Positions 1 to 48,141 of a stretch of DNA of 64,000 nucleotides are shown in pieces. Numbering within the stretch: position 1 is the stretch's first letter; every line of letters begins with the position of its first letter. Location: the NCBI GenBank assembly GCA_964392895.1, contig CAYMRL010000002.1:436295-500294 (forward strand). The letters are read 5' to 3'. The DNA comes from an uncultured bacterium (lineage in GTDB: Bacteria; Deinococcota; Deinococci; Deinococcales; Trueperaceae). The position numbers were made by a program, and so were the translations under genes. Under the pieces are notes generated by a model, which saw only the letters and a list, made by a program, of their open reading frames with translations, ran no database searches and was not told where the DNA came from.

Positions 1-221
1 CGCGCGTCGGGCGCGTGGTGCTCGTCAGCGAGGCTCCGCGCACCGCGGGGTTCATCAGCGAGGTCGCGGCCACCATCAGCGAAGAGGTCATGGATTCTCT
101 GCTCGCGCCGCCGCTGCGCGTGACGGGCTTCGACACCCCCTACCCTTACGCGCAAGACCGCGAGTACCTGCCTGGGCCGAATCGCATCCTCAAGGCCGTG
201 CAGCGCGTGCTCGATTACTAG
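1..221 (+). CDS. 2-oxo acid (pyruvate/branched-chain) dehydrogenase E1 component beta subunit, C-terminal fragment (5' end lies outside the window)
   Basis: ORF ends ...[42 protein letters not shown], typical of the transketolase-like C-terminal domain of E1beta. It sits immediately upstream of an E2 gene, with a GAGGAG RBS following its stop. Confidence 0.75.
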
Positions 222-232
222 AGGAGCGCTGA

Positions 233-1669
233 ATGTCGCGAGAGATGCTGCTGCCTGAGCTCGCAGAGTCCGTCGTCGAGGGCGAGATCGTGCGTTGGCT
301 CGTCGCCGAGGGCGAGAGCGTCGGCAAGGACCAAGCGGTCGTCGAGGTCATGACCGACAAGGTGACGGTCGAGCTGCCGGCCCCGTTCGCCGGAGTGCTC
401 GAGAAGCACCTGGCTGCCGAGGGCGACATCGTCAAGGTTCATCAGCCGATAGCGCGGTTCGCCAACGCCAACGCCGACGCAGTCGGCGCTGGCGCCAGCG
501 CCACCGAGACCGCGAGGTCCGTGGCCCCGCCGGTTCAGGACGACGGCGAGCCCGATGACGGCGACAAGCTGAGCCTGTTCAAACCCGGTGCGGGAGGCGG
601 TGACATCACGGTAACGCTGCGCTCTCCGTCGCGTGCCGGACCGAGCAGCGTCGTGGCCGACCCGCCGCCGTCGCCTCGCGCCGCACCGGCGCCGGCGCCC
701 GCCGTCGCGCGCGCTAACCCTCCCTCGGTCGGCCGCGGCGCCTACGGCCGCGTGCTGGCTGTCCCTGCTGCACGCAAGCTCGCGCGCGAGCTCGGGGTGG
801 ACGTCGAACAGGTCCTTGGCAGCGGTCCGCACGGACGCGTCAGAGTCGACGACGTCAAGCAACACGTCAGCGGTGGGATCGCCGCTGCTCCTGCGCGCAC
901 CGCCGACGTCTCGACTCAGCGCGGTCCCGTGGCTCCTTCCCGCCACGCCTGGCCGGAAGCCGACGGCGTCGAGGAACGCACGCCCTTCCGCGGCATCCGG
1001 CGCGCCATCGCCAACCAGATGGTCGCCTCGCACCTGCAGACGGTCAGGACGCTGCACGTCGACGAGGCGGACGTCACTGCGCTTGTCAACCTCCGCGAAC
1101 GCCTCAAGCCCGTGGCTGCCAGGCGCGGCGTGAAGCTCTCGTACCTACCGTTCGTGATGAAGGCCGTCGCGGCCGCGCTGGCCGAGTTCCCCAGCCTCAA
1201 CTCGAGCCTGGACGAGGACAAGGGCGAGGTCGTGCTGAAGCGCTACTGCAACCTCGGCATGGCCGTCGCGACCGACAACGGCCTCGTCGTGCCGGTGGTG
1301 AAGGGTGTCCACCGCCTCTCGCTCCTGGAGGTGGCCAACGAGATCAACAGGCTCGCCGCCGCTGCGCGTGACGGCACGCTGAAGCCCGAGGATGTCAGAG
1401 GCGGCACGTTCTCAGTCACCAACATCGGCAGCCTCGGCGGGCTCTTCTCGTTCCCTATCATCAACACGCCCGAGGCCGCCATCCTCGGCGTGCACCAGAT
1501 CAAGAAGCGGCCGGTCGTCATGCCGGACGACAGCATCGCGGCGCGGTCGATGATCTACCTGAGCCTGTCGTTCGATCACCGGCTCGTCGACGGCGCCGAG
1601 GGGGCGATGTTCACCAGCCGCGTGATAGAGCTGCTCGAGACGCCCGAGGCGCTGTTCCTGGATCTCTGA
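233..1669 (+). CDS. Dihydrolipoamide acyltransferase (E2) of a 2-oxo acid dehydrogenase complex
   Basis: N-terminal lipoyl domain (VEVMTDKVTVELPAP), Ala/Pro-rich linkers, an E3-binding region (AVPAARKLARELGVD) and a catalytic domain with the DHRLVDG motif. ATG at 233 follows a GAGGAG RBS. Confidence 0.85.
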   Translation: MSREMLLPELAESVVEGEIVRWLVAEGESVGKDQAVVEVMTDKVTVELPAPFAGVLEKHLAAEGDIVKVHQPIARFANANADAVGAGASATETARSVAPPVQDDGEPDDGDKLSLFKPGAGGGDITVTLRSPSRAGPSSVVADPPPSPRAAPAPAPAVARANPPSVGRGAYGRVLAVPAARKLARELGVDVEQVLGSGPHGRVRVDDVKQHVSGGIAAAPARTADVSTQRGPVAPSRHAWPEADGVEERTPFRGIRRAIANQMVASHLQTVRTLHVDEADVTALVNLRERLKPVAARRGVKLSYLPFVMKAVAAALAEFPSLNSSLDEDKGEVVLKRYCNLGMAVATDNGLVVPVVKGVHRLSLLEVANEINRLAAAARDGTLKPEDVRGGTFSVTNIGSLGGLFSFPIINTPEAAILGVHQIKKRPVVMPDDSIAARSMIYLSLSFDHRLVDGAEGAMFTSRVIELLETPEALFLDL

Positions 1670-1672
1670 GCC

Positions 1673-2071
1673 CTAGAGCTCGACGACATCCAGGACGCTC
1701 TCCAGCGCCTTGAAGTCCTTCACGTTCCGCGTGCCGAGCGCCATCTCGCGACTGATTGCGGTTGCAGCGATCATCATGTCGACTCTGCGCAAGCGACTGA
1801 GAGTTCCTCCTCCAGCGGTGATGGCTTGGCACACAGTGCGATAGACCTGAGATTCGCGGTCGGCGAACGGTAACCCGGGCCCGTAGAGGCTGCGGACGTT
1901 GTGGAGCTGCAAGCCTGCCTGCACCGCGATCTTGGCATCCGAGGAGAACTCGCCCTCGGCGAGCTCCGCGTAGCAGATAGCCGAGGTGTAGAAGCGTGCG
2001 TTCGGATAGCGTGCCACTGCCTCCGGACGCAGGCCAGTGATCAGAAGGTTCGTATCGAGCAGAACCTTCAT
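1673..2071 (-). CDS. vapC: PIN-domain toxin VapC
   Basis: 132 aa starting MKVLLDTNLLI with acidic PIN residues. Overlaps the upstream antitoxin gene by 4 nt. Confidence 0.75.
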   Translation of the reverse strand: MKVLLDTNLLITGLRPEAVARYPNARFYTSAICYAELAEGEFSSDAKIAVQAGLQLHNVRSLYGPGLPFADRESQVYRTVCQAITAGGGTLSRLRRVDMMIAATAISREMALGTRNVKDFKALESVLDVVEL

Positions 2072-2367
2072 TCGCGGTCTGGGGAGCCGATCGTGCCCGA
2101 GGCGTCTCTGCCTGCTTCGAGCATCTCGAGCAGCGCCCTTGTCGTTGCGTCATCGCGCTCGATCGCGAAAGAAGCTGCGAGCACCTGCTCGGCGGTAGCG
2201 CCGCCGGTCAGGTCGCTAGTGGCTTTGGCTATCACGACAGATGTGGCTCGCCCCTGCACCGTCACCATGTACTCGCCCTCGCCCGCCTCGACCTCGCGGA
2301 CGATTCTTGAGGCGTGCTGCTGCAACTCTCGAACCCCGATAGGCTTCACCCTTAAATCGTAGCACAT
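2068..2367 (-). CDS. vapB: Phd/YefM-type antitoxin (VapB partner of VapC)
   Basis: IGVRELQQHASRIVREVEAGEGEYMVTVQGRATSVVIA matches the Phd/YefM N-terminal fold. The start is ambiguous: ATG at 2367 or GTG at 2349. Confidence 0.65.
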   Translation of the reverse strand: MCYDLRVKPIGVRELQQHASRIVREVEAGEGEYMVTVQGRATSVVIAKATSDLTGGATAEQVLAASFAIERDDATTRALLEMLEAGRDASGTIGSPDRE

Positions 2368-2397
2368 CTACGTAAAACTACGTATCCTTGCCTGGTC

Positions 2398-2439
2398 CAG
2401 AACGAAACAAAGGATGGTGGTCAGTAGCGACCACCATCC
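2398..2439 (-). terminator. Rho-independent terminator downstream of ppdK
   Basis: Perfect 11-bp inverted repeat GGATGGTGGTC-AGTAGC-GACCACCATCC at 2412-2439. On the minus strand it is followed by TTTGTTTCGTT. Confidence 0.6.
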
Positions 2440-2485
2440 CAGCTGCTTACTTGATCTCAGCGACGCCCCTAGAACACCACTCCGG

Positions 2486-5275
2486 CTAAGCCGTCACGAG
2501 CTCCTTGGCCGGCTCGGTAGGAACCGGCTCCGGCTCCGAGGGGTGCCTGCCACGCATCTCGCCACGCCCGAACTTCAGAGCCGCGTGCGCAGCGGCCAAC
2601 CGCGCCACCGGCACCCTGAAGGGCGAGCAGCTCACGTAGTCGAGGCCCAGCCTGTGGCACAGCTCGATGGAGGTCGGGTCGCCGCCGTGCTCGCCGCAGA
2701 TGCCTACCTCGAGGTCGGGCCTGACCTTGCGGCCGAGCTGCGTCGCGATCTCCATCAGCTTGCCGACGCCGCGCGGGTCGATGCGGTCGAAGGGGTTCTC
2801 CTCGAGGACGCCGTGCTCGAGGTAGTACATCAGGAAGCCCTTCTCGGCGTCGTCGCGCGAGACCCCGTAGGCGGTCTGCGTCAGGTCGTTGGTGCCGAAG
2901 CTGAAGAACTGCGCGTGCTCGGCCAGCTCGTCGGCGATCAGGGCCGCGCGCGGCACCTCGATCATCGTGCCGAAGTGGTAGTCGACCTTCACGCCGGTCT
3001 CCGCCATCACGGCGGCAGCCTCGGCCTCGAGGCTCTGGCGTTGCACCGTGAGCTCGTTGACGTGAGCGACCAGCGGGATCATCACCTCGGGGTGGACGTC
3101 GACACCCTCGCGCTTCACCTGGCAGGCCGCCTCGAAGATGGCGCGCACCTGCATCTTGGTCAGCTCGGGTATCAGGATGCCGAGGCGCACGCCGCGGGTG
3201 CCGAGCATCGGGTTCGCCTCGCGCAGCTCGGTTACGCGCACCAGGTGGTCCTGCTTCTGCCTGATGACGCTCAGGGCGCTGTCGACGTCGCGCAGCGTCG
3301 CGTGGTGCTGCAGCTGCATCTTCAGGTCGGCGAGGTCGTGGGTGAGCTCGTCGTGCGACGGCAGGAACTCGTGCAGCGGCGGGTCGATCAGGCGGATTAT
3401 CACCGGCAGGGCGTCCATCGCGCGGAACAGGCCGACGAAGTCCTGCCGCTGCATCGGCAGCAGCTCCTCGAGAGCTTCGGCGCGTTCGGTCGTGTTGCGG
3501 GCCATGATCATGCGCTGCACGATCGGCAGTCTGTCGGCCTCGAAGAACATGTGCTCGGTGCGGACCAGCCCGAGACCCTCTGCGCCGTTGGCGCGGGCGC
3601 GCTCAGCGTCGGCGGGGTAGTCGGCGTTGGCCCTGATGCCGAGGCTGCGGATCTCGTCGGCCCAGCCGAGCAGCCTGGTCAGGTACGGGTTGGTGATGTC
3701 GGGGACGACCGTCGGCAGCTTGCCGAGGTAGACGTCGCCGAGGGTGCCGTCGACCGAGATGTGGTCGCCCTCCTTGATGACGAGCCCGTCGACCGTCATC
3801 TGGCGGGCCGTCAGGTCGATCTCCAGCGCCGCTATACCGACGACAGCCGGCTTGCCGAACTGGCGCGCGACCAGAGCCGCGTGGCTGGTGCGTCCGCCGC
3901 TGCTGGTGACGATGCCGTTGGCGGCGAGCATGCCGTGAACGTCGTCAGGCTTGGTCTCCGGCCGCACCATGATCACGTCGCGGCCGTCGACCTTCGCCCA
4001 GCGCTCGGCGGTGTCGGCGTCGAAAGCGACCATGCCGACAGCCGCTCCCGGCGAGACGTTGAGGCCGCGCGCCAGCAGGCGCGCCTCCTGGCGGGCCTTG
4101 GTATCGAGTTGCGGGTGCAGGAAGTAGTCGATCTGGTCGGGCTTGACGCGCTTGACGGCCGTCTCGCGGTCGATCAGGCTCTCCTCGACCATGTCGACGG
4201 CGATCTTGACCTCGGCCTGCGCGGTGCGCTTGCCGTCGCGGGTCTGCAGGACCCAGAGCTTGCCGTGCTCGACCGTGAACTCCATGTCCTGCATGTTGCG
4301 GTAGTGCTTCTCGAGCCGCCGCGCGATGCTGGCGAACTCCTCGTAAGCCTGCGGCATCACGACCTTGAGATCGTCTAAGTCCTTGGTCGGGCGTATGCCT
4401 GCCACCACGTCCTCGCCCTGAGCGTTGACGAGGAAGTCGCCCTCGATGTGGTTCTCACCGGTGGTGGCGTTGCGGCTCATCGCGACGCCCGTCGCGCAGT
4501 CGTCGCCCATGTTGCCGAACACCATCGTCTGGATGTTGACGGCGGTGCCGAGGTCGTGGCGGATGCCGGCGGCGTTGCGGTAGTCGATCGCGCGCTTGCC
4601 GTTCCACGACCTGAAGACCGCCTCGGTCGCGAGCTTGAGCTGCTCGAGCGGCTCCTCGGGGAAGTCGGTGCCGGTGTAGGTCTTGACGATCTCCTTGAAC
4701 TTGCGGGTCGTCTCTTTCCAGTCGGCGGCGGAGAGCTCGGCGTCGCTGGCGACACCGGCCGCCTTGCGCTTGGCGGTGATGACCGCCTCGAACACCTCGT
4801 CGGGCACACCCAACACGACCGAGCCGAACATCTGCACCAAGCGGCGGTACGAGTCGTAGACGAAGCGCGGTTCGGCTGTCAGCGCGATCAACCCGCTGGC
4901 GACCTCGTCGTTGAGGCCGATATTGAGGATGGTGTCCATCATCCCCGGCATCGAGAACTTGGCGCCGGAGCGGCACGAGACCAGCAGCGGGCGCTCCGCG
5001 ACGCCGAACGCCTTACCGGTCAACTTCTCGACGCGCCTGAGCGCCTCGAGCTCCTGCTCCCACATTCCTTCGGGAAAGCGCTCGCCGGCTGCCAGGTAGG
5101 CGTTGCAGGCCTCGGTCGTCACCGTGAAGCCGGGAGGCACGGGCACGCCCAGGCGTGTCATGTCGCCCAAGTTCGCCCCCTTGCCGCCCAGCAGCGCGCG
5201 CGCTCCGTCCCAATCACCAGCGAGCGCTTCGGCTTCGCTCACCTGATCGAACAGGTAGACCCACTTCTTGCTCAT
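2486..5275 (-). CDS. ppdK: Pyruvate, phosphate dikinase
   Basis: 929 aa starting MSKKWVYLFDQV..GGKGANLGDMTRLGVPVPPGFTVTTEACN, with the central phosphohistidine domain (TSHAAL) and the C-terminal PEP-utilizing domain. Confidence 0.9.
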   Translation of the reverse strand: MSKKWVYLFDQVSEAEALAGDWDGARALLGGKGANLGDMTRLGVPVPPGFTVTTEACNAYLAAGERFPEGMWEQELEALRRVEKLTGKAFGVAERPLLVSCRSGAKFSMPGMMDTILNIGLNDEVASGLIALTAEPRFVYDSYRRLVQMFGSVVLGVPDEVFEAVITAKRKAAGVASDAELSAADWKETTRKFKEIVKTYTGTDFPEEPLEQLKLATEAVFRSWNGKRAIDYRNAAGIRHDLGTAVNIQTMVFGNMGDDCATGVAMSRNATTGENHIEGDFLVNAQGEDVVAGIRPTKDLDDLKVVMPQAYEEFASIARRLEKHYRNMQDMEFTVEHGKLWVLQTRDGKRTAQAEVKIAVDMVEESLIDRETAVKRVKPDQIDYFLHPQLDTKARQEARLLARGLNVSPGAAVGMVAFDADTAERWAKVDGRDVIMVRPETKPDDVHGMLAANGIVTSSGGRTSHAALVARQFGKPAVVGIAALEIDLTARQMTVDGLVIKEGDHISVDGTLGDVYLGKLPTVVPDITNPYLTRLLGWADEIRSLGIRANADYPADAERARANGAEGLGLVRTEHMFFEADRLPIVQRMIMARNTTERAEALEELLPMQRQDFVGLFRAMDALPVIIRLIDPPLHEFLPSHDELTHDLADLKMQLQHHATLRDVDSALSVIRQKQDHLVRVTELREANPMLGTRGVRLGILIPELTKMQVRAIFEAACQVKREGVDVHPEVMIPLVAHVNELTVQRQSLEAEAAAVMAETGVKVDYHFGTMIEVPRAALIADELAEHAQFFSFGTNDLTQTAYGVSRDDAEKGFLMYYLEHGVLEENPFDRIDPRGVGKLMEIATQLGRKVRPDLEVGICGEHGGDPTSIELCHRLGLDYVSCSPFRVPVARLAAAHAALKFGRGEMRGRHPSEPEPVPTEPAKELVTA

Positions 5276-28439: not shown

Positions 28440-29777
28440 TTGCCGGAGCTGAACGCCCCGCGCCTGTCGCTGACTTGGAGGGTCGCGCTGCTGGCCGGCG
28501 CCGCCACGACGGTGTTGGCAGGGCTGACCCTGGTCGTCTCCTACCTCACGGTTCAGAACGGGCTGTACGGCGACCTGCGGCGCGCTCTGCGCGAGGACGC
28601 CGACATCGTGGCGCAGCTCTACGACACGGGTGGCAGCGCGGCAGAGCAGATAACCGGCCCGACGGGCGGCAGCATCATCCAGGTCTACGGTGCCGGTGGC
28701 GAGCTGCTGGCGGCTTCGCGCTCGGAGTTCGAGAGGTCCATCGCCGCCATCCCGCCTTCGGACGTCGTGGGGGCGCGGCGCGTGGCGACGCGCTGGAGCG
28801 GGAGGCTCTCCGGTCGGGAGATGGAGGTGGCGCTGGCGCCGTTCAGTCTCGGGGTCGTGGCTGTGCTAGCCGATCCCAGCTACATCGCCGACAGTCTGAG
28901 GGAGCTCTCGCGCTCGTTGCTGCTGGCCGGCGGGCTGCTCGTGGTCGTCAGTCTTCTGCTCGGCTACGGCGTCGCCGCCGGCTCGCTGCGGCCGGTCGCG
29001 CGCCTCGCTAACCGCGCTGCCCAGCTGGGACCGGAGCGACTCGAGCCGATCAGCTACCGCGGTCCCAACGACGAGGTGGGACGGCTGGCGCACAGCCTCA
29101 ACGACCTGCTGGCCCGCGTCAGGGAGTCGCGCGACGCGCAGCGCGTGTTCCTCGCCGAGACCAGTCACGAGCTCAGGACCCCGCTCACCAGCCTCACGGG
29201 TTTCCTCGACCGGGCTGCGCGGACCTCCGGCCCCGAAGCCGCCGAGGACCTACGCGACGCCCAGCGCGTCGCTACCACGATGGCGCGCCTAGTCGAGGAT
29301 CTGTTGCAGCTCTCGCGTGGGGCGGTCGTCAAGGATGCCGAGATCCACCTCGTCGACCTCGGCGCCGACGTCATGCGGCCCGTCGCGGCTGAGTTCGATG
29401 GCGTCGAGCTGGAGGCTCCGCGCGGCGTGCTGGTGCTCGGCGACCCGCAGCGTCTGCGTCAGCTGGTGCGTAACCTCGTGGCCAACGCGGTGCGCGCAGC
29501 CGGGAGACCGGCGGGTGTTCGGATACTGCTCGAGCAGCAGGGTGAGCGGGCCGTGGTGCGAGTCAAGGACGACGGCCCCGGCATCGCCCCTGAGCTGCTC
29601 GAGAAGATCTTCGAGAAGTTCTACAAGGGAGCTGGCGGGGGGTCCGGCCTGGGCCTGGCGATCGCCAGGCAGGTAGCGGTGCACCACGGCGGTGCCCTGA
29701 CGGCCGTCAGTCGACCGGGCGAGACCGTGTTCGAGTTGCGGCTGCCTCTCGTCGCCGAGGAGGAGGACGAGGGCTAG
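28440..29777 (+). CDS. Sensor histidine kinase
   Basis: Two TM segments with a periplasmic loop, HAMP, H-box [13 protein letters not shown], and ATP-binding N/G boxes ([19 protein letters not shown]). TTG start. Confidence 0.8.
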
Positions 29778-31456
29778 AGCCTCGGCAGCGTCACGCCGCG
29801 CTGACCCTGGTACTTGCCTTTGCGGTCGCCGTACGTGACCTCGGGTCGTTCTCCTTGGAAGAACAGGAGCTGGACTATGCCCTCGTTGGCGTATACCTTC
29901 GCCGGTAGCGGGGTGGTGTTGGACAGTTCCAAGGTCACGTGACCTTCCCAACCGGGCTCTAAAGGCGTTACGTTTGCGACGATCCCACAGTTTCGGACAA
30001 ATACCCCGGCCTGCAGTGCGAAGTTGCCGGCTTCTGGGACCGTCAAGCAGTAGACGTCCTCTTCGCCGCGAAGGTGGCGGACGGCGGTGACCTTGTGGTT
30101 CTTGTACTCGGGCTTACCTCGGAAGGCAGCGACAACAGAGGGGAAACGCCTGAAGACCGACCGGTCGCAGCCGAGGAATCTGGCCGCAACTCTTATGGAG
30201 CCAGCGGTATCCAGTGCGTTACGGACCTCGTCCTCGCCTATCCCTTCGCGAAGGCGCAGTCCGCGAGCGTGCTCAGCTTGGCGCCTCCGTCTGCCTGGGC
30301 TAGCCATCAGCCATGCTCTACGGGAGCGCTCTGCTTGGGCGGCTCGTGCGTCTTGGTTGCCATCCCAGAAGGTGGCTTGACGGTAGGCTTGGAGGTCACG
30401 CTCTTCCTGGGTCCAGCGCACCCGATGTTGGGCGAGTAATGCCTCCCTGCGATCGGCATACGCAGGATCGTGCCAGAAGGCCATGGCGCGAGCACGCTGA
30501 ACGGCGCTGAGGTGTCGTGCCCAAGCAGGGTCCTGTCGACGTCGCACGAAGGACGCCTTGATCGCGGCTGCGTGCTCCTGCGAATCGAAATCGTCCCCAT
30601 AGCTGATGGAGTTGGGAAGCTTGATGTGCTCACCTGCCGGCATGCGCGTCAGGTTCCAGGGGTTGTTGTTGCGCCGGTCGTGATCTAAGTGATGACGATG
30701 TGTGCCTGCCTGCTCCTCGTAGATACCGTTGCGCACGTTCCACTCGTCAGCCAGCCGATGAGTCGTTTCGTAGCGTCCGGCCAACGGCAGATAGGTCATC
30801 TCGTAACCGCGGAAGAGCTTGCGGTAGAGCGGCATCAGTGCGGTGCCCGGCCTTAGCTCACCGGCGTCTCGCCAAGCGCCATCCCTAAGCATGAACCCGT
30901 GATCTTCGGTCGCGTGGACGATAGAGCCATCGTCTAGCTCGATCTCGACAAGCGAGTCTCGACCAACGAATCGGGGCGCGTCGAGGAGCGTCACTATGAG
31001 GCGTCCGTTAGGGCCCATGCTGTAGCCGAAGAACATCTCGCCTTCGCGAGCCCGGTCGGCCATCTCCTCGATCGTCGGTGCCGTTCCGTCGACCAGTGCC
31101 ACGCGCGTGTCGCCCCTGAAGCAGCGGGCGTACGAGGACTTACCGAGGGCGATGACCATCGTGTCGTCAGGTATCCGTAGATACTCGACCGACCGAGTGA
31201 GCACGAAGCTGTTCGGCGGGATTATGCACGTGTCGTCACTCGATTCGACGAGGCTACGAGTATCGAAGTGCTTAGGATCGACGACGGTGTTGAACGCGTT
31301 GACGAAGATGCGCCACTCGGGAGCGGCGCGCAGGTCGTAGCCGAAGCTCGAGAGGCCGTAACTGATGACGCCCTCGCGCACCAACCGGTCCTCGAAGGGC
31401 GTGATCATCCCCTCTTGTGCCCTGGCGCGGATCCACCGATCTGACTTGATGCTCAT
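29774..31456 (-). CDS. dcd: dCTP deaminase interrupted by an in-frame intein (extein 182 aa plus intein 378 aa)
   Basis: N-extein [21 protein letters not shown]...GKSSYAR. C-extein [44 protein letters not shown]...[15 protein letters not shown]. The joined sequence is colinear with bacterial Dcd. ATG at 31456. Confidence 0.85.
29990..31123 (-). mobile_element. Intein (378 aa) in dcd with Hint blocks and an HNH homing-endonuclease domain
   Basis: Begins [13 protein letters not shown] (block A), has block [13 protein letters not shown], an HNH motif [25 protein letters not shown], and C-terminal blocks ..[24 protein letters not shown] followed by the +1 Cys. Boundaries were checked on the nucleotide sequence. 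Confidence 0.75.
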
Positions 31457-31558: not shown

Positions 31559-32443
31559 ATGATCCGAGTGCAAGAGAAACCCGCCGCCAAAGTCAACGGC
31601 TTCATAGGCTTGGTACTGGTGTTCGGAGCGGCTGCCGCGGGTGTGTGGCAGTTCGTGATGGGAGTCGGCATCACGTCCGGCAGCGCAGGACAGGTGCTGT
31701 TCGGCATCGCTCTGGTGATAGCGGCTTTCATCTTGCTCGGCGGCCTGTTCACGGTGCAGCCCAACGAGTCGCGGGTGTTGGTGTTCTTCGGCAACTACGT
31801 CGGCAGCGTTCGCGACTCAGGCTTCTGGTTCACCAACCCGTTCACCAACAAGAAGCGCGTGAGCCTGCGGGTCAGGAACTTCAATAGCGAGCGGCTGAAG
31901 GTGAACGACGCCGACGGCAACCCAGTCGAGATCGCGGCGGTGATCGTGTGGCGCGTCGTCGAGTCCGCCAAGGCGGTCTTCGACGTGGACGACTACGAGG
32001 AGTTCGTCGACATCCAAGCCGAGACGGCGCTGCGCAACCTGGCGACCCGCTACCCCTACGACGCCAGCGGCCTCGAGAGACCTAGCCTGCGGGAGAACCC
32101 CGATGAGCTGGCCGGCGCTCTGAAGATCGAGCTCGACGCCCGCCTCGAGATCGCGGGGGTCGACGTGATGGAGGCGCGGCTGACGCACCTGGCCTACGCG
32201 CCGGAGATCGCGCACGCCATGCTCAGGCGTCAGCAGGCTCAGGCGGTGGTGGCGGCCCGCAAGCTGATCGTCGACGCCGCGGTCGGCATGGTCGAGGATG
32301 CCATCGCCGGACTTGCCGCCGGCGGCGCCGTCGATCTGGATGGCGACAGGCGCGCCGCCCTCGCCAACAACCTGATGGTGGCGCTCACCAGTGACAGCGC
32401 CGTCGCACCCGTCATCAACACCGGCACGCTGCACGCCGGCTGA
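31559..32443 (+). CDS. SPFH/band-7 domain membrane protein (stomatin/HflKC-like)
   Basis: N-terminal TM segments, then an SPFH core ([19 protein letters not shown]...) and a coiled-coil tail ([14 protein letters not shown]). AAGGAGG RBS. Confidence 0.8.
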
Positions 32444-44763: not shown

Positions 44764-44773
44764 GAGCCGACCC

Positions 44774-45577
44774 TCAGACCAGCGTGCGGCGGATACGCGA
44801 GCTGATCGTGTCGACGACGACGACGAACAGCACGATGACGATCAAGATGGCCGAGATCTCGGTCCAACGCCTGAAGGATAGCCGCTGCACGAGCATCAGA
44901 CCGATGCCGCCTGCACCGACCAGGCCGAGCACGGCGGCGGAGCGCAGGTTGATCTCGAAGCGGTAGAGCAGGTTGGAGAGGAACTCGGGCAGCACCTGCG
45001 GCACGACGGCGTAGATGAACACCTGGACCTGGTTGCCGCCGGCGGCGCGGATCGCCTCCATGGGGCCCTGGTCGATGCCTTCGATGACGTCGGAGAAGAT
45101 CTTGCCGAGGAACCCGATCGAGTGCAGGCCCATCGCCATGATCCCCGCCGTCGGACCCGGTCCGGCCGCGGCCACGAAGATGACTGCTAGCAGGATCTCG
45201 GGGAACGTCCGGACCGCGACGAGGATCGCCTTGCCGGGCAGCGCGAACGCGCGCTTGCCCAACAGGTTGCCGGAGCCGAGGAACGCCAGCGGAAAGGCGA
45301 GGATGCCACCGAGGGCCGTCCCGAGGATGGCCATGTAGAAGGTCTGCATCATCGCCCTGAACGCTTGCGGGAACAGCTCCGCCTGCGGGTTGACGAGGCT
45401 GCGCAGCAGCGCGGTCAGGTGGACCGAGACGCCGGTGCGGAACCTCGCCCAGCTCGGGTAGTTCATCGTCATGACCGCGACGACGAACAGGGCGATGGCG
45501 GCGATGAGCGCGATGACGATGAGCGCGCGTGCGCGGCGCTGCTCGGCGGGTGGGCGTGGGACCAACGCTATGCTCAC
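44774..45577 (-). CDS. phnE: Phosphonate ABC transporter permease PhnE (second copy)
   Basis: PhnE-like TM core and EAA region. The proposed GTG start at 45577 lies 8 nt after the upstream gene's stop, with a GAGGA RBS. The longer printed ORF overlaps the upstream gene. Confidence 0.7.
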   Translation of the reverse strand: MSIALVPRPPAEQRRARALIVIALIAAIALFVVAVMTMNYPSWARFRTGVSVHLTALLRSLVNPQAELFPQAFRAMMQTFYMAILGTALGGILAFPLAFLGSGNLLGKRAFALPGKAILVAVRTFPEILLAVIFVAAAGPGPTAGIMAMGLHSIGFLGKIFSDVIEGIDQGPMEAIRAAGGNQVQVFIYAVVPQVLPEFLSNLLYRFEINLRSAAVLGLVGAGGIGLMLVQRLSFRRWTEISAILIVIVLFVVVVDTISSRIRRTLV

Positions 45578-45585
45578 TCTTGTCC

Positions 45586-46401
45586 TCAGATCAGCTTCGA
45601 GCGGGCCCAGACAGAGAGCCCGTCGATGAGCAGGACGACGGCGAAGATGACGAGGATCAGCATCCCCAGTCCGGGGTAGTCGAAGAAGTTCATGAACCGC
45701 TGCAGCAGGAAGCCGATGCCGCCGGCGCCGACGAAGCCGAGCACCACCGAGGCGCGCACGTTGATCTCGAACGCGTAGAGCACGAACGAGGTCATGGTGG
45801 CGGCGACCTGGGGCCACACGCCGTAGACGATGGTGCGGTTGCGCCCCGCGCCGACCGCCCTCAGGGCCTCGAGGGGACCGGGATCGGCCGCCTCGACGGT
45901 CTCACTGCCGAGTTTGGCGAGCACGCCGACCGTGAAGAACGTCAGCGCGATGACGCCGGGTAAGGCGCCGAGACCGACGATCGGCACGAAGATGGCGGCC
46001 CACAGCAGGTCAGGGATGCTGCGCAGCACCGTCAGCAAGGTGCGGGCGATCCACATCGAGACGGGGTCGAGAGCTGTGTTGGCGGAGGCGAGGAAGATCA
46101 GCGGTAGCGCTATGAGCGTCCCCACGATGGTGGCGACGTAGGCGATCTGCAGCGTCTCGACCAGCGGTCCCCAGATCATCGGCAGCGCGGTCGGGTCGGG
46201 GGTCATGCGGCCGAAGAAGCGGAAGAAGTCGCTGGCGCCGGTGAACAGCGCGGGCAGGTTGAACGCCGTCTGCCGGTACGCCAGCACGAACAGGGCCACT
46301 ACTATCGCGACCGTGCCGAGCGACTTCAGCCGACCCACCATGGGCGGCTTCGGCAGCGCGGTCACCGAGGCGCCAGCGCCTGACGGCCGCGGTTCAGGCA
46401 C
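45586..46401 (-). CDS. phnE: Phosphonate ABC transporter permease PhnE
   Basis: 271 aa PhnE family (IWGPLVETLQIAYVATIVGTLIALPL). Confidence 0.75.
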   Translation of the reverse strand: MPEPRPSGAGASVTALPKPPMVGRLKSLGTVAIVVALFVLAYRQTAFNLPALFTGASDFFRFFGRMTPDPTALPMIWGPLVETLQIAYVATIVGTLIALPLIFLASANTALDPVSMWIARTLLTVLRSIPDLLWAAIFVPIVGLGALPGVIALTFFTVGVLAKLGSETVEAADPGPLEALRAVGAGRNRTIVYGVWPQVAATMTSFVLYAFEINVRASVVLGFVGAGGIGFLLQRFMNFFDYPGLGMLILVIFAVVLLIDGLSVWARSKLI

Positions 46402-47167
46402 CGCGGATGTCCTTGCTGTGGTCGATCGGGCGCCCGTAGATGTCCTCGAAGACCTTGTCGGAGGCGTCCTCGGGCGGACCGTCGTAGACGATGAGGCCGT
46501 CGCGCATGCCGACGATGCGGTCGGCGTACTCGCGCGCCATGTCGATGAAGTGCAGGTTGACGATCGTCGTGATCCCGTCCTCGCGCGCGATGCGCTTCAG
46601 GTCGCGCATGACCGAGTGCGAGGTGGGCGGGTCCAAGCTGGCGACGGGCTCGTCGGCGAGCATCACCGACGGCTTCTGCGCCAACGCGCGCGCGATGCCG
46701 ACGCGCTGCTGCTGGCCGCCGGAGAGCGCGTCGGCGCGCACGAACGCCTTCTCGGGTATGCCCACGCGGCCGAGGCACTCGTGAGCCAGGGCCAGGTCGG
46801 ACGTCGGGAACATGCCGAGCACGCCGCGCCAGGCGGGCAGGTCGCCGAGGCGCCCCGCCAAGACGTTGCGGAGCACACCGGAGCGCTTCACGAGGTTGAA
46901 GGTCTGGAAGATCATGCCGACGTCGCTGCGGATCTCGCGCAGCTCGCGGCCGCGCGCTCGCGTCACGTTGCGCCCGTCGACGATCACGTTGCCTGCAGAC
47001 GGCACTACCAGGTTGTTGACGGTGCGGATCAGCGTCGACTTGCCCGCGCCGGAGAGGCCGACGATCACCACGAACTGCCCGCGAGGAACCTCCAGGCTCA
47101 CGCCTTTGAGCGCCTTCAGGCCAGTCCTGTAGGTGACTTCGACACCATCGAAGACGATGTGAGACAC
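46394..47167 (-). CDS. phnC: Phosphonate ABC transporter ATP-binding protein PhnC
   Basis: VIVGLSGAGKSTLIRTVNNL Walker A, LSGGQQQRVGIARAL signature, and the PhnC-typical N-terminal region. Confidence 0.85.
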   Translation of the reverse strand: MSHIVFDGVEVTYRTGLKALKGVSLEVPRGQFVVIVGLSGAGKSTLIRTVNNLVVPSAGNVIVDGRNVTRARGRELREIRSDVGMIFQTFNLVKRSGVLRNVLAGRLGDLPAWRGVLGMFPTSDLALAHECLGRVGIPEKAFVRADALSGGQQQRVGIARALAQKPSVMLADEPVASLDPPTSHSVMRDLKRIAREDGITTIVNLHFIDMAREYADRIVGMRDGLIVYDGPPEDASDKVFEDIYGRPIDHSKDIRGA

Positions 47168-47259
47168 GTGCGAGAGTACAACGGAAAGGCGCAGCGGCGA
47201 TAGCCACTGCGCCTCTCTCGCTGCGGTGCAATCCCGCAGGCTACTGCTGTTTCAGATGC

Positions 47260-48141
47260 TCAGCGCTGGAAGGTGCGCGAGACCTCGCGGACGATGTCGT
47301 AGGCCGAGGCTTCGATCGGGGCGAACGCCGTCACGTTGAACAGGGTCTGGGTCAGAACCTTGCCCTCTTCGGTGTTGGCGATGTCGATGAGCGCGTCGGC
47401 GATCTGCTGCTTCAGCGTCGAGTCGAGGCCGGCGCGGACGACGGCGCCGTCGTTGGGGATGTAGTCGGAGTAGCCGAGGATGCAGACGACTTCCTTGACG
47501 TCGGCGTAGTCGGCCTCGATGGTCTCGCGGCCGTCGGAGCCGGGCGAGCCGCCGAAGGTCACGCTGACGTCGACGTCACCGAGGTAGACGGCGAGGGCCG
47601 AGGCGTCGTGCGAGCCGGTGAAGACCGAGGTCATCTCCGTGTCGGGGTTGATGCCGTACGTGGTGGACAGGGTGACGTAGGGGAACTGGTAGCCCGAGGC
47701 GGAGCCGGGGTCGACGAAGCCGATGGTGCGGCCGCGGAGCTGCTCGAACTCGGTGATGCCGCTGTCGCAGCGCACGTTGAACTGCGCGCGGTAGCTGGTG
47801 GCGCCCTGGCGGACCGAGGCGAGGATGACCTCGGCGCCGTAGGCGTCGACGGCCTGCACGAGAGCGGCGGGGCCGAAGAGGCCGATGTCGACGCGGCCGG
47901 TGCCGACCGCCTCGACGAGGCCGACGAAGTTGGTGCTGACGAAGGTCTCGACGGGGATCAGCAGGCGCGAGGAGAGCATGTCGGCGATCGGGCCGAGGCT
48001 GTCGACGATCACGTTGGCTTCGCGGCTGGGGACCATGCCGAGCACCAGCTTCGAGGGGATGTCTCCGTCTTGCTGGGCGAAGCCGACGAACAGCGTGGCG
48101 GCGAGAACCACCGCTAGGACTGACTTGGTTAGACGCTTCAC
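47260..48141 (-). CDS. phnD: Phosphonate ABC transporter substrate-binding protein PhnD
   Basis: Signal peptide plus the PhnD-family fold (LVLGMVPSREANVIVDSLGPIADMLSSRL). Confidence 0.8.
   Translation of the reverse strand: MKRLTKSVLAVVLAATLFVGFAQQDGDIPSKLVLGMVPSREANVIVDSLGPIADMLSSRLLIPVETFVSTNFVGLVEAVGTGRVDIGLFGPAALVQAVDAYGAEVILASVRQGATSYRAQFNVRCDSGITEFEQLRGRTIGFVDPGSASGYQFPYVTLSTTYGINPDTEMTSVFTGSHDASALAVYLGDVDVSVTFGGSPGSDGRETIEADYADVKEVVCILGYSDYIPNDGAVVRAGLDSTLKQQIADALIDIANTEEGKVLTQTLFNVTAFAPIEASAYDIVREVSRTFQR

Follow-up and report, generated by a model that had tools for sequence, protein, structure and literature searches.

Does the dCTP deaminase gene (dcd) of an uncultured member of the Trueperaceae carry an intein, and if so, of which class and with which kind of nuclease? 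The question is raised by a stretch of 64,000 nucleotides, hereafter called the window, which corresponds to positions 436,295 to 500,294 of contig CAYMRL010000002.1 (assembly GCA_964392895.1), and in which an initial annotation had described dcd as split by an intein of 378 residues. Our analysis shows that the insert is a genuine intein and was correctly recognized as such. It is very probably a bona fide homing intein of class 1, equipped with an I-HmuI-like HNH nuclease. The intein is of an already known and published type, of which copies at the same site are widespread and a phage copy has been shown to splice. Beyond the published description are the pattern of residues at the splicing positions F:4, G:6 and F:13, the breadth of the distribution, the set of empty sites and a lineage-specific replacement of a histidine by proline in the nuclease (His281Pro).

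The insert in dcd and its empty sites

The dcd precursor gene is located at positions 29774..31456 of the minus strand, as are all of the features described in this and the following two sections, and translates into an open reading frame of 560 codons plus a stop codon (29774-29776). The precursor was matched by the Pfam profile DCD (PF22769; E=3e-27), with the match split into two separated stretches, and by the NCBIfam equivalog dCTP_deam (TIGR02274), for which the score was 132.5 bits as compared to a cutoff of 92.8. The N-extein (residues 1-111, 31124..31456) ends in GKSSYAR and aligns to residues 3-120 of the Dcd structure from Burkholderia (4DHK), while the C-extein (residues 490-560, 29777..29989) starts with the +1 cysteine and was delimited by alignment to Dcd structures. 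When residues 1-111 are joined to residues 490-560, the result is a colinear protein of 182 residues, about the size given in the initial annotation, which aligns without gaps across the junction to both 4DHK (E=1.3e-72) and a second Dcd structure, 3KM3 (E=3e-66).

The insert itself (29990..31123, residues 112-489 of the precursor, Cys1 to Asn378 of the intein) translates into exactly 378 residues, CFRGDTRV...GVFVRN, with GKSSYAR just before it. The initial cysteine, the TEDH of block B, the terminal GVFVRN and the cysteine that follows in the extein were all found in the translation as described. Residues 121-489 of the precursor were matched by Pfam Intein_splicing (PF14890; E=1.5e-12), and additional matches were obtained to NCBIfam intein_Nterm (TIGR01445; E=4e-8) and to an NCBIfam model of an intein-containing RtcB-family protein (E=8e-41, on the insert). 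Since the DCD match in two stretches is accompanied by matches to Intein_splicing, dCTP_deam and intein_Nterm, the insert is not a chance feature. The N-terminal part of the Hint domain (30839..31123), which is supported by TIGR01445 and by structural comparison, contains block A (Cys1, codon 31121-31123) and block B (T183-E-D-H186). The C-terminal part (29990..30097) contains block F (Cys470 = F:4, codon 30047-30049) and block G (GVFVRN, with Asn489 at codon 29990-29992), as recognized from invariant residues and a weak match to TIGR01443 (intein_Cterm). An AlphaFold (AF2) model of the 378-residue intein, built with 49 homologs, has a mean predicted local distance difference test (pLDDT) score of 88.3 and consists of beta structure at intein residues 1-120 and 344-378. 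A Foldseek comparison of the model to the PDB identified the Hint domains of Mtu RecA (E=4e-7), Npu and Ssp DnaE, and Ssp and Npu DnaB.

We compared the spliced extein to one genome per GTDB species and inspected the best 80 loci, as the initial annotation had proposed for related genomes. The dcd gene was uninterrupted in all 80. Fourteen of these intein-less loci belong to Trueperaceae, Truepera, Deinococcales or unclassified metagenome-assembled genomes, with an extein identity of 84-91% and with GKSSYAR followed directly by CGIVAN. In two of the empty sites (L007, L010), the DNA reads ...TACGC[GC]CG[CG] up to the insertion point and TGCGGCATCGTCGCC... after it. Several empty-site loci are syntenic with the window, with a histidine kinase gene on one side and a Band_7 gene on the other. 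In the blastn comparisons to the syntenic loci, the alignments end at window position 29989/29990 and restart at 31121, with the coordinates in the loci abutting: a precise presence/absence of 1134 bp between the window and its syntenic relatives.

These results also bear on whether the 378 residues might be an accessory domain conserved within a subfamily of Dcd rather than an intein, which the initial annotation had named as the alternative to consider. A search with the precursor over 5.8 billion proteins gave more than 2500 matches, and the best 120 that were listed all combine Dcd with the intein in an architecture of about 560 residues (58-82% identity), which would speak for an accessory domain. 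Against this stand the Hint fold, the intein profiles and the empty sites in close syntenic relatives, none of the 80 best extein matches having the insert. Furthermore, the same module is found in the unrelated portal, GyrA and RtcB proteins, and Cys1, the terminal Asn and Cys+1 are invariant. The empty sites together with the Hint fold refute this alternative, the probability of which is practically nil. We also rejected a bacterial intein-like (BIL) domain, as both the +1 nucleophile and the terminal asparagine are present.

Ser111, Arg115 and Glu138 are catalytic-site residues of the Dcd protein in E. coli, the sequence of which we take to be the 193 residues of PDB 1XS1, with self-consistent numbering. 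Residues K106-S107-S108-Y109-A110-R111 of the window protein and C490 on the other side of the intein align with R110-S111-S112-L113-A114-R115 and L116 in E. coli, and the glutamate in TLELSN aligns with Glu138. With this alignment, equivalents of all three catalytic-site residues are present in the window protein, and the intein is inserted directly after the active-site arginine (R111, the equivalent of Arg115). This agrees with the active-site location claimed in the initial annotation and is a typical placement for an intein.

The +1 position is not a cysteine in all of the intein-less alleles. In L015, L018, L019 and L028 (Trueperaceae/Deinococcota), GKS[S/T]YAR is followed by Val or Thr and then by GIVAN (at position ~3333 in the first three loci and at 1227 in L028). 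The cysteine at +1 is therefore dispensable for Dcd. A dcd allele with Val at +1 would be unable to support splicing; its invasion would then be lethal or non-productive, and this may provide a kind of resistance.

Splicing residues and the class of the intein

Residue conservation was examined in 122 aligned intein-bearing Dcd sequences. Cys1, the B:10 His, Cys470 (VYCLTV, F:4), Gly477 (F:13), Asn489 and Cys+1 were invariant in 122/122, and Cys1 was invariant also in all 42 copies of a wider representative set. The window copy has zero departures at the conserved splicing or extein columns. Class 1 inteins have an N-terminal Cys, Ser or Thr that forms a linear thioester (PMC5222942, PMC4031507). 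Their usual assisting residues, which assist splicing without defining the class, are Thr B:7, His B:10, Asp F:4, His F:13 and His G:6. The window intein has the Thr and His of block B, combined with Cys at F:4, Gly at F:13 and Arg at G:6. With the class-1 inteins of Mtu RecA, Ssp DnaB and Npu/Ssp DnaE it thus shares the Hint fold, Cys1, Thr B:7, His B:10, the C-terminal Asn and Cys+1, but it differs from them at F:4, which is Asp in those inteins, and at G:6, which in those is mostly His.

The initial annotation had singled out the penultimate arginine as unusual. This did not hold, as the penultimate position (488, G:6) is free to vary in the family, being Ser in 34, His in 31, Arg in 27, Gln in 11 and Ala in 7 of the 122 sequences, and inteins without the G:6 His can splice (PMC4031507). 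The invariant F:4 Cys is the more distinctive feature; the replacements of Asp by Cys at F:4, of His by Gly at F:13 and of His by Pro at residue 281 of the nuclease had been missed.

By the most likely route, that of class 1, the 560-residue precursor would be translated and the Hint domain would fold, whereupon Cys112 (Cys1 of the intein) would undergo an N-S acyl shift and Cys490 (+1) would receive the N-extein by trans-thioesterification. Asn489 would then cyclize, freeing the intein, and an S-N shift would seal the 182-residue Dcd. This order of chemical steps, as well as the splicing of this Dcd copy, is inferred. The freed intein of 378 residues would carry the nuclease, and the nuclease of the family would cut or nick intein-less dcd within the sequence coding for GKS(S/T)YAR and the following CGI, after which repair would copy the intein into the site (homing). 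That the target is the intein-less dcd allele is suggested by the conservation of the nuclease across the family.

Could the F:4 cysteine instead take the leading role? In a class-3-like or hybrid reaction, Cys470 rather than Cys112 would attack the N-terminal junction, giving a branched intermediate at block F, or it would pass the N-extein on from Cys1 to the +1 Cys. An N-terminal nucleophile is not required in class 3 inteins, which have the F:4 Cys within a Trp-Cys-Thr triplet and mostly Ser or Thr at +1 (PMC2807308). The F:4 Cys is the signature nucleophile of this class and adjoins both junctions (PMC2807308, PMC4031507), and it is found in 122/122 of the Dcd inteins, whereas relatives in other hosts have Asp. 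The class 3 inteins MP-Be DnaB, Msm DnaBi1 and Dra Snf2 share this cysteine with the window intein, but they lack an N-terminal nucleophile and have Trp at B:12, Thr at G:5 and usually Ser/Thr at +1 (PMC2807308, PMC5222942), where the window intein has Cys1, Phe, Val and Cys+1. The remainder of the triplet is absent from the Dcd inteins in general, with Phe at B:12 in 120/122 and Val at G:5 in 115/122, and the strict conservation of Cys1 is not what a class 3 intein would need. Also, the nearest relatives by both sequence and fold are class-1 inteins. We therefore regard class 1 as the best reading, because Cys1 is invariant, the triplet is Phe-Cys-Val and the +1 residue is Cys; class 3 proper was rejected on these grounds, and a class-3-like or hybrid reaction is distinctly improbable.

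A described homolog provides an experimental reference. In the cyanophage vB_AphaS-CL131, the dCTP deaminase (gp069) is split by an insert with HintN and HNH_3 at residues 133-483 (Sulcius et al., 2018; PMC6293099), and expression of gp069 in E. coli resulted in a product of ~25 kDa, which is the size of the spliced Dcd (PMC6293099). The gp069 protein of this Aphanizomenon phage is colinear with the window precursor over 98% of the length, at 36% identity. The host protein, the insertion point (GKS[S/T]YAR before CF...N, and CGI after it) and the layout of HintN, HNH_3 and helix-turn-helix are the same, as are the YCLT of block F (F:4 Cys), GNF (F:13 Gly) and a penultimate residue other than His (Lys in CL131, Arg in the window). 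The CL131 intein differs in that it is shorter (351 as compared to 378 residues), encoded by a phage rather than a chromosome, and has retained the fourth His of the HNH motif. The F:4 Cys variant is functional, since gp069 shares these residues and is spliced.

The same comparison bears on whether the element is dead, with splicing lost and dcd reduced to a pseudogene. The non-canonical residues at G:6, F:13 and F:4 and the single change at a conserved His could be taken as signs of decay. The open reading frame is intact, however, with no departures at the conserved splicing and extein columns; the same non-canonical residues are present in gp069, which splices (PMC6293099), and the protein is identical across strains that are 1-1.4% apart at the nucleotide level. 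A dead element is highly improbable.

In a set of 208 related intein copies, the residues at F:4, G:6 and F:13 were found to covary, in counts that ignore shared ancestry: copies with Asp at F:4 have His at G:6 in 130/139 and His at F:13 in 91/139, as compared to His at G:6 in only 18/58 (and other residues in 40/58) and Gly at F:13 in 36/58 of the copies with Cys at F:4. This loss of the G:6 and F:13 His in the presence of F:4 Cys, as opposed to their retention in the presence of F:4 Asp, suggests that the Cys variant assists Asn cyclization and activation of the junction in another way.

The HNH nuclease and its fourth histidine

The homing-endonuclease module (residues 207-453, 30098..30838) is located between the two parts of the Hint domain, and contains a beta-sheet, a beta-beta-alpha-metal HNH core, long helices and a C-terminal helix-turn-helix. 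In the model of the intein, a beta-beta-alpha unit is seen at intein residues ~141-175, long helices at 181-285 and four short helices at 297-334. The profile of the family matched Dcd and Hint domains and no HNH protein among the PDB sequences, and Hint domains only were recovered among the listed matches in the Foldseek search with the whole intein. The separately modelled central module gave a fold match to I-HmuI (PDB 1U3E), including the beta-beta-alpha-metal fold. I-HmuI is encoded by the DNA polymerase intron of the Bacillus phage SPO1 and acts as a free-standing nickase, outside any Hint domain. The beta-sheet, the beta-beta-alpha-metal core, the helices and the C-terminal helix-turn-helix are common to both, but the identity is only 18%, and the window module has a colicin-like HH...N...HxxxH arrangement and a much longer helical linker. 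We conclude from the modelled fold that the module is probably an HNH nuclease resembling I-HmuI, with a helix-turn-helix at the C-terminus.

The HNH motif (residues 255-281, 30614..30694) reads H255 H256 ... N268 ... H277-xxx-P281 and has the spacing of the colicin-type H-N-H motif with four histidines. In that type, the first and third His bind the metal, the second acts as the general base, and the fourth serves as an extra ligand or protonates the leaving group. Each of the residues H255, H256, N263, N264, N268 and H277 is shared by 118-122 of the 122 homologs. The putative DNA-binding segment (residues 408-445, 30122..30235) is helix-turn-helix-like, being modelled as four short helices in an arrangement like that of I-HmuI, and its motif GSIRxAARxLxxDRSxFRRFP is retained as far as phage CL131. 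The assignment of the endonuclease to the HNH rather than the LAGLIDADG type in the initial annotation is borne out by the I-HmuI-like fold and by matches to HNH_3 in full-length homologs. Contrary to what had been suggested, the type is not unusual, since HNH-type inteins have been recognized since 1997 (Dalgaard et al., as cited in PMC5050341) and the whole family is of the HNH type.

The HNH set of the window copy is incomplete: H255, H256, N268 and H277 are present, while the fourth His is replaced by Pro281 (codon CCC, 30614..30616; the His codon CAC is one nucleotide away). His occupies this position in 119/122 homologs and in 41/42 complete intein copies of the wider representative set, most of which are from other host proteins. 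Among the 170 columns that are at least 95% conserved in the 122 sequences, Pro281 is the sole departure of the window protein. As it is common to strain variants that are 1-1.4% apart in DNA, it is not a sequencing error. Based on this conservation pattern, we lean slightly towards the interpretation that His281Pro has weakened or abolished the nuclease activity in the window lineage, and the change may mark the beginning of nuclease decay. With a weakened nuclease, the intein would persist here by vertical inheritance, because an imprecise loss of the intein would destroy Dcd. On the other side, the function of the fourth His has been called "elusive" for HNH enzymes, and fewer His ligands suffice in enzymes of the I-HmuI type, for which reasons the change may be tolerated. 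The replacement of the fourth HNH histidine by proline, occurring naturally in a copy that is otherwise perfectly conserved, offers a ready test of whether nuclease loss precedes the loss of an intein in the homing cycle.

A change that hits the nuclease and leaves all splicing residues intact is also what might be seen if the element was domesticated as a conditional switch. Here, the triad of Cys1, F:4 Cys and Cys+1 would form disulfides or bind zinc, the maturation of Dcd would be paused in oxidative stress, and the nuclease would be in the process of being lost as the element is kept for regulation. For Msm DnaBi1, redox control through the cysteines of the intein is on record (PMC6195587), the three invariant cysteines are expected to come together at the active site, and the host lineage belongs to the Deinococcota. 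Against a switch, the nuclease residues are strongly conserved across the family, as is characteristic of selfish homing elements, near relatives live without the intein, and the cysteine triad is present in the phage copies too. We consider the domesticated switch improbable.

A broader proposal, which the alignments make conceivable and which we regard as rather unlikely, is that Dcd-type inteins form a class-1 subtype with a three-cysteine active site (Cys1, F:4 and +1). The F:4 Cys would replace Asp, the penultimate and F:13 His would be dispensable, and the site could work as a relay nucleophile, or else as a redox or zinc switch on the supply of dUTP/dUMP and hence dTTP; in the window lineage the nuclease would be decaying through His281Pro, with splicing kept. 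If true, the combination of a three-cysteine switch and a decaying nuclease would represent an early step from a selfish element to a regulator. Neither the F:4 Cys pattern nor His281Pro upsets the current understanding of inteins.

Distribution, mobility and age

The organisms named among the 120 best precursor matches are Trueperaceae, Deinococcus, Thermaceae, Anaerolineae, Gemmatimonadota, Longimicrobiaceae and a gammaproteobacterium, as well as phages. The remark in the initial annotation that Dcd is not a well-known intein host is right in that the system is obscure, but it has been published (PMC6293099), and such proteins are very common in the databases; an earlier report of an intein-bearing Dcd in a proteobacterium and in a member of the Chloroflexi is cited in PMC6293099. 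A HMMER search with the intein alone retrieved 3802 representatives, of which 267 had E<1e-30. Full-length intein matches were located inside T4-like portal proteins and GyrA, and matches to RtcB were obtained via NCBIfam; the occurrence of the same intein family in portal, GyrA and RtcB proteins implies that it moves between host genes. The seven proteins with matches to the intein family that were scanned included four T4-like portal proteins and one GyrA. The sister inteins in portal, GyrA and RtcB proteins are similar to the window intein over the full length (1-378) at 30-40% identity, with the same Hint and HNH architecture and the HxxxH pair, but they differ by the host gene and by having Asp at F:4 along with His at G:6.

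Proteins of 2000-3000 residues (P0123, P0128, P0138, P0151 and others) showed 5-7 separate intein matches and appear to be multi-intein precursors. In the Bacillus phage SP-15, the DNA of which is hypermodified, a "hypothetical protein" (KT624200.1, 12609-13775) matches the intein part (residues 101-490, 25% identity) and is probably an unannotated intein in a host gene.

In IMG/VR viral contigs, the identical site is occupied by an intein in at least 14 dcd genes; the copies include full-size ones with the HNH motif and mini-inteins of 166-191 residues. The mini-inteins of ~191 residues in L096 (IMGVR_UViG_3300049489_000838) and ~166 residues in L097 (IMGVR_UViG_3300022744_000020) have kept the F:4 Cys and have no HNH motif, and thus look like natural endonuclease-deletion derivatives. 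The mix of full-size and mini-inteins in viruses is the spectrum expected of a homing cycle. With its matched empty sites, phage copies and mini-inteins, the window intein is a textbook-quality natural example of an HNH homing intein in an enzyme of nucleotide metabolism, and should be useful for annotation.

At an extein identity of ~90%, the intein is present in P0002/L104 and absent from L006 and L007. P0002/L104 is the nearest intein-bearing relative (82% identical), with synteny to the window on the kinase side. The DNA identity between the window and L104 is 72% for the intein, 80% and 84% for the exteins and 70-77% for the neighboring genes. As the divergence of the intein is similar to that of the host genes, the element is old in the lineage and not newly arrived; a recent arrival was rejected. 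The G+C content at third codon positions (GC3), computed on short segments, is 0.68-0.78 in the intein, 0.75 in the C-extein, 0.82 in the N-extein and 0.87-0.885 in the neighboring genes. For segments of this length, the low GC3 of the intein fits a foreign origin with incomplete amelioration, and the low values of the C-extein and intein together might trace back to co-conversion when the intein first homed into the site.

Some of these results weigh against a class-1 homing intein with an HNH nuclease in the window. The divergence from L104 gives no sign of recent homing in the window lineage. The window copy is known from its sequence, splicing having been shown for the homologous gp069 of CL131 only, and three of its assisting residues are non-canonical (Cys for Asp at F:4, Gly for His at F:13 and Arg for His at G:6), which may mean that the efficiency or mechanism of splicing differs. 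The profile search recommended in the initial annotation succeeded for the Hint domain, but matched HNH_3 in the window protein only weakly (E=0.012, 15.7 bits as compared to a cutoff of 24.8, and thus below the gathering score), and HNH_3 was matched with E<0.01 in only 12/50 members of the intein family. We nevertheless hold to the HNH assignment, because of the fold match to I-HmuI and because of the strong HNH_3 matches in full-length homologs of the intein, which reach 2.5e-19 in the sister copies in portal proteins.

The start of dcd at 31456 is supported by the alignment to 4DHK, which begins at Met1, opposite residue 3 of 4DHK, and by the conserved MSIKSD... sequence. The mechanical open reading frame reaches a TTG at 31573 and the public gene call, P0001, begins at Met17 (544 residues); both of these starts are probably wrong, and the database protein is probably short by 16 residues at the N-terminus (31409-31456). 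A protein identical to the window precursor from Met17 onwards was found on 13 contigs from several samples. The location of the gene on the minus strand had been omitted in the initial annotation. At its stop codon, dcd overlaps by 4 nt (29774-29777) with the 3' end of a convergent HAMP/HisKA histidine kinase gene (28440-29777, plus strand), which leaves no space for an intervening terminator. The Rfam scan of the whole 64-kb window gave no matches, and no second intein of the same family was found in its six-frame open reading frames with a hidden Markov model of the family. In L104, genes for a phosphonate-type ABC transporter (6-3284) are located directly upstream of dcd and are 83% identical to window positions 44772-48092, about 13 kb away from dcd; this displacement implies a rearrangement beside dcd between the two genomes. 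Lastly, Dcd proteins with the intein are labelled as "hypothetical protein" or "dCTP deaminase domain-containing protein" at NCBI, while one record of the Joint Genome Institute (JGI) already reads [quoted passage not shown]

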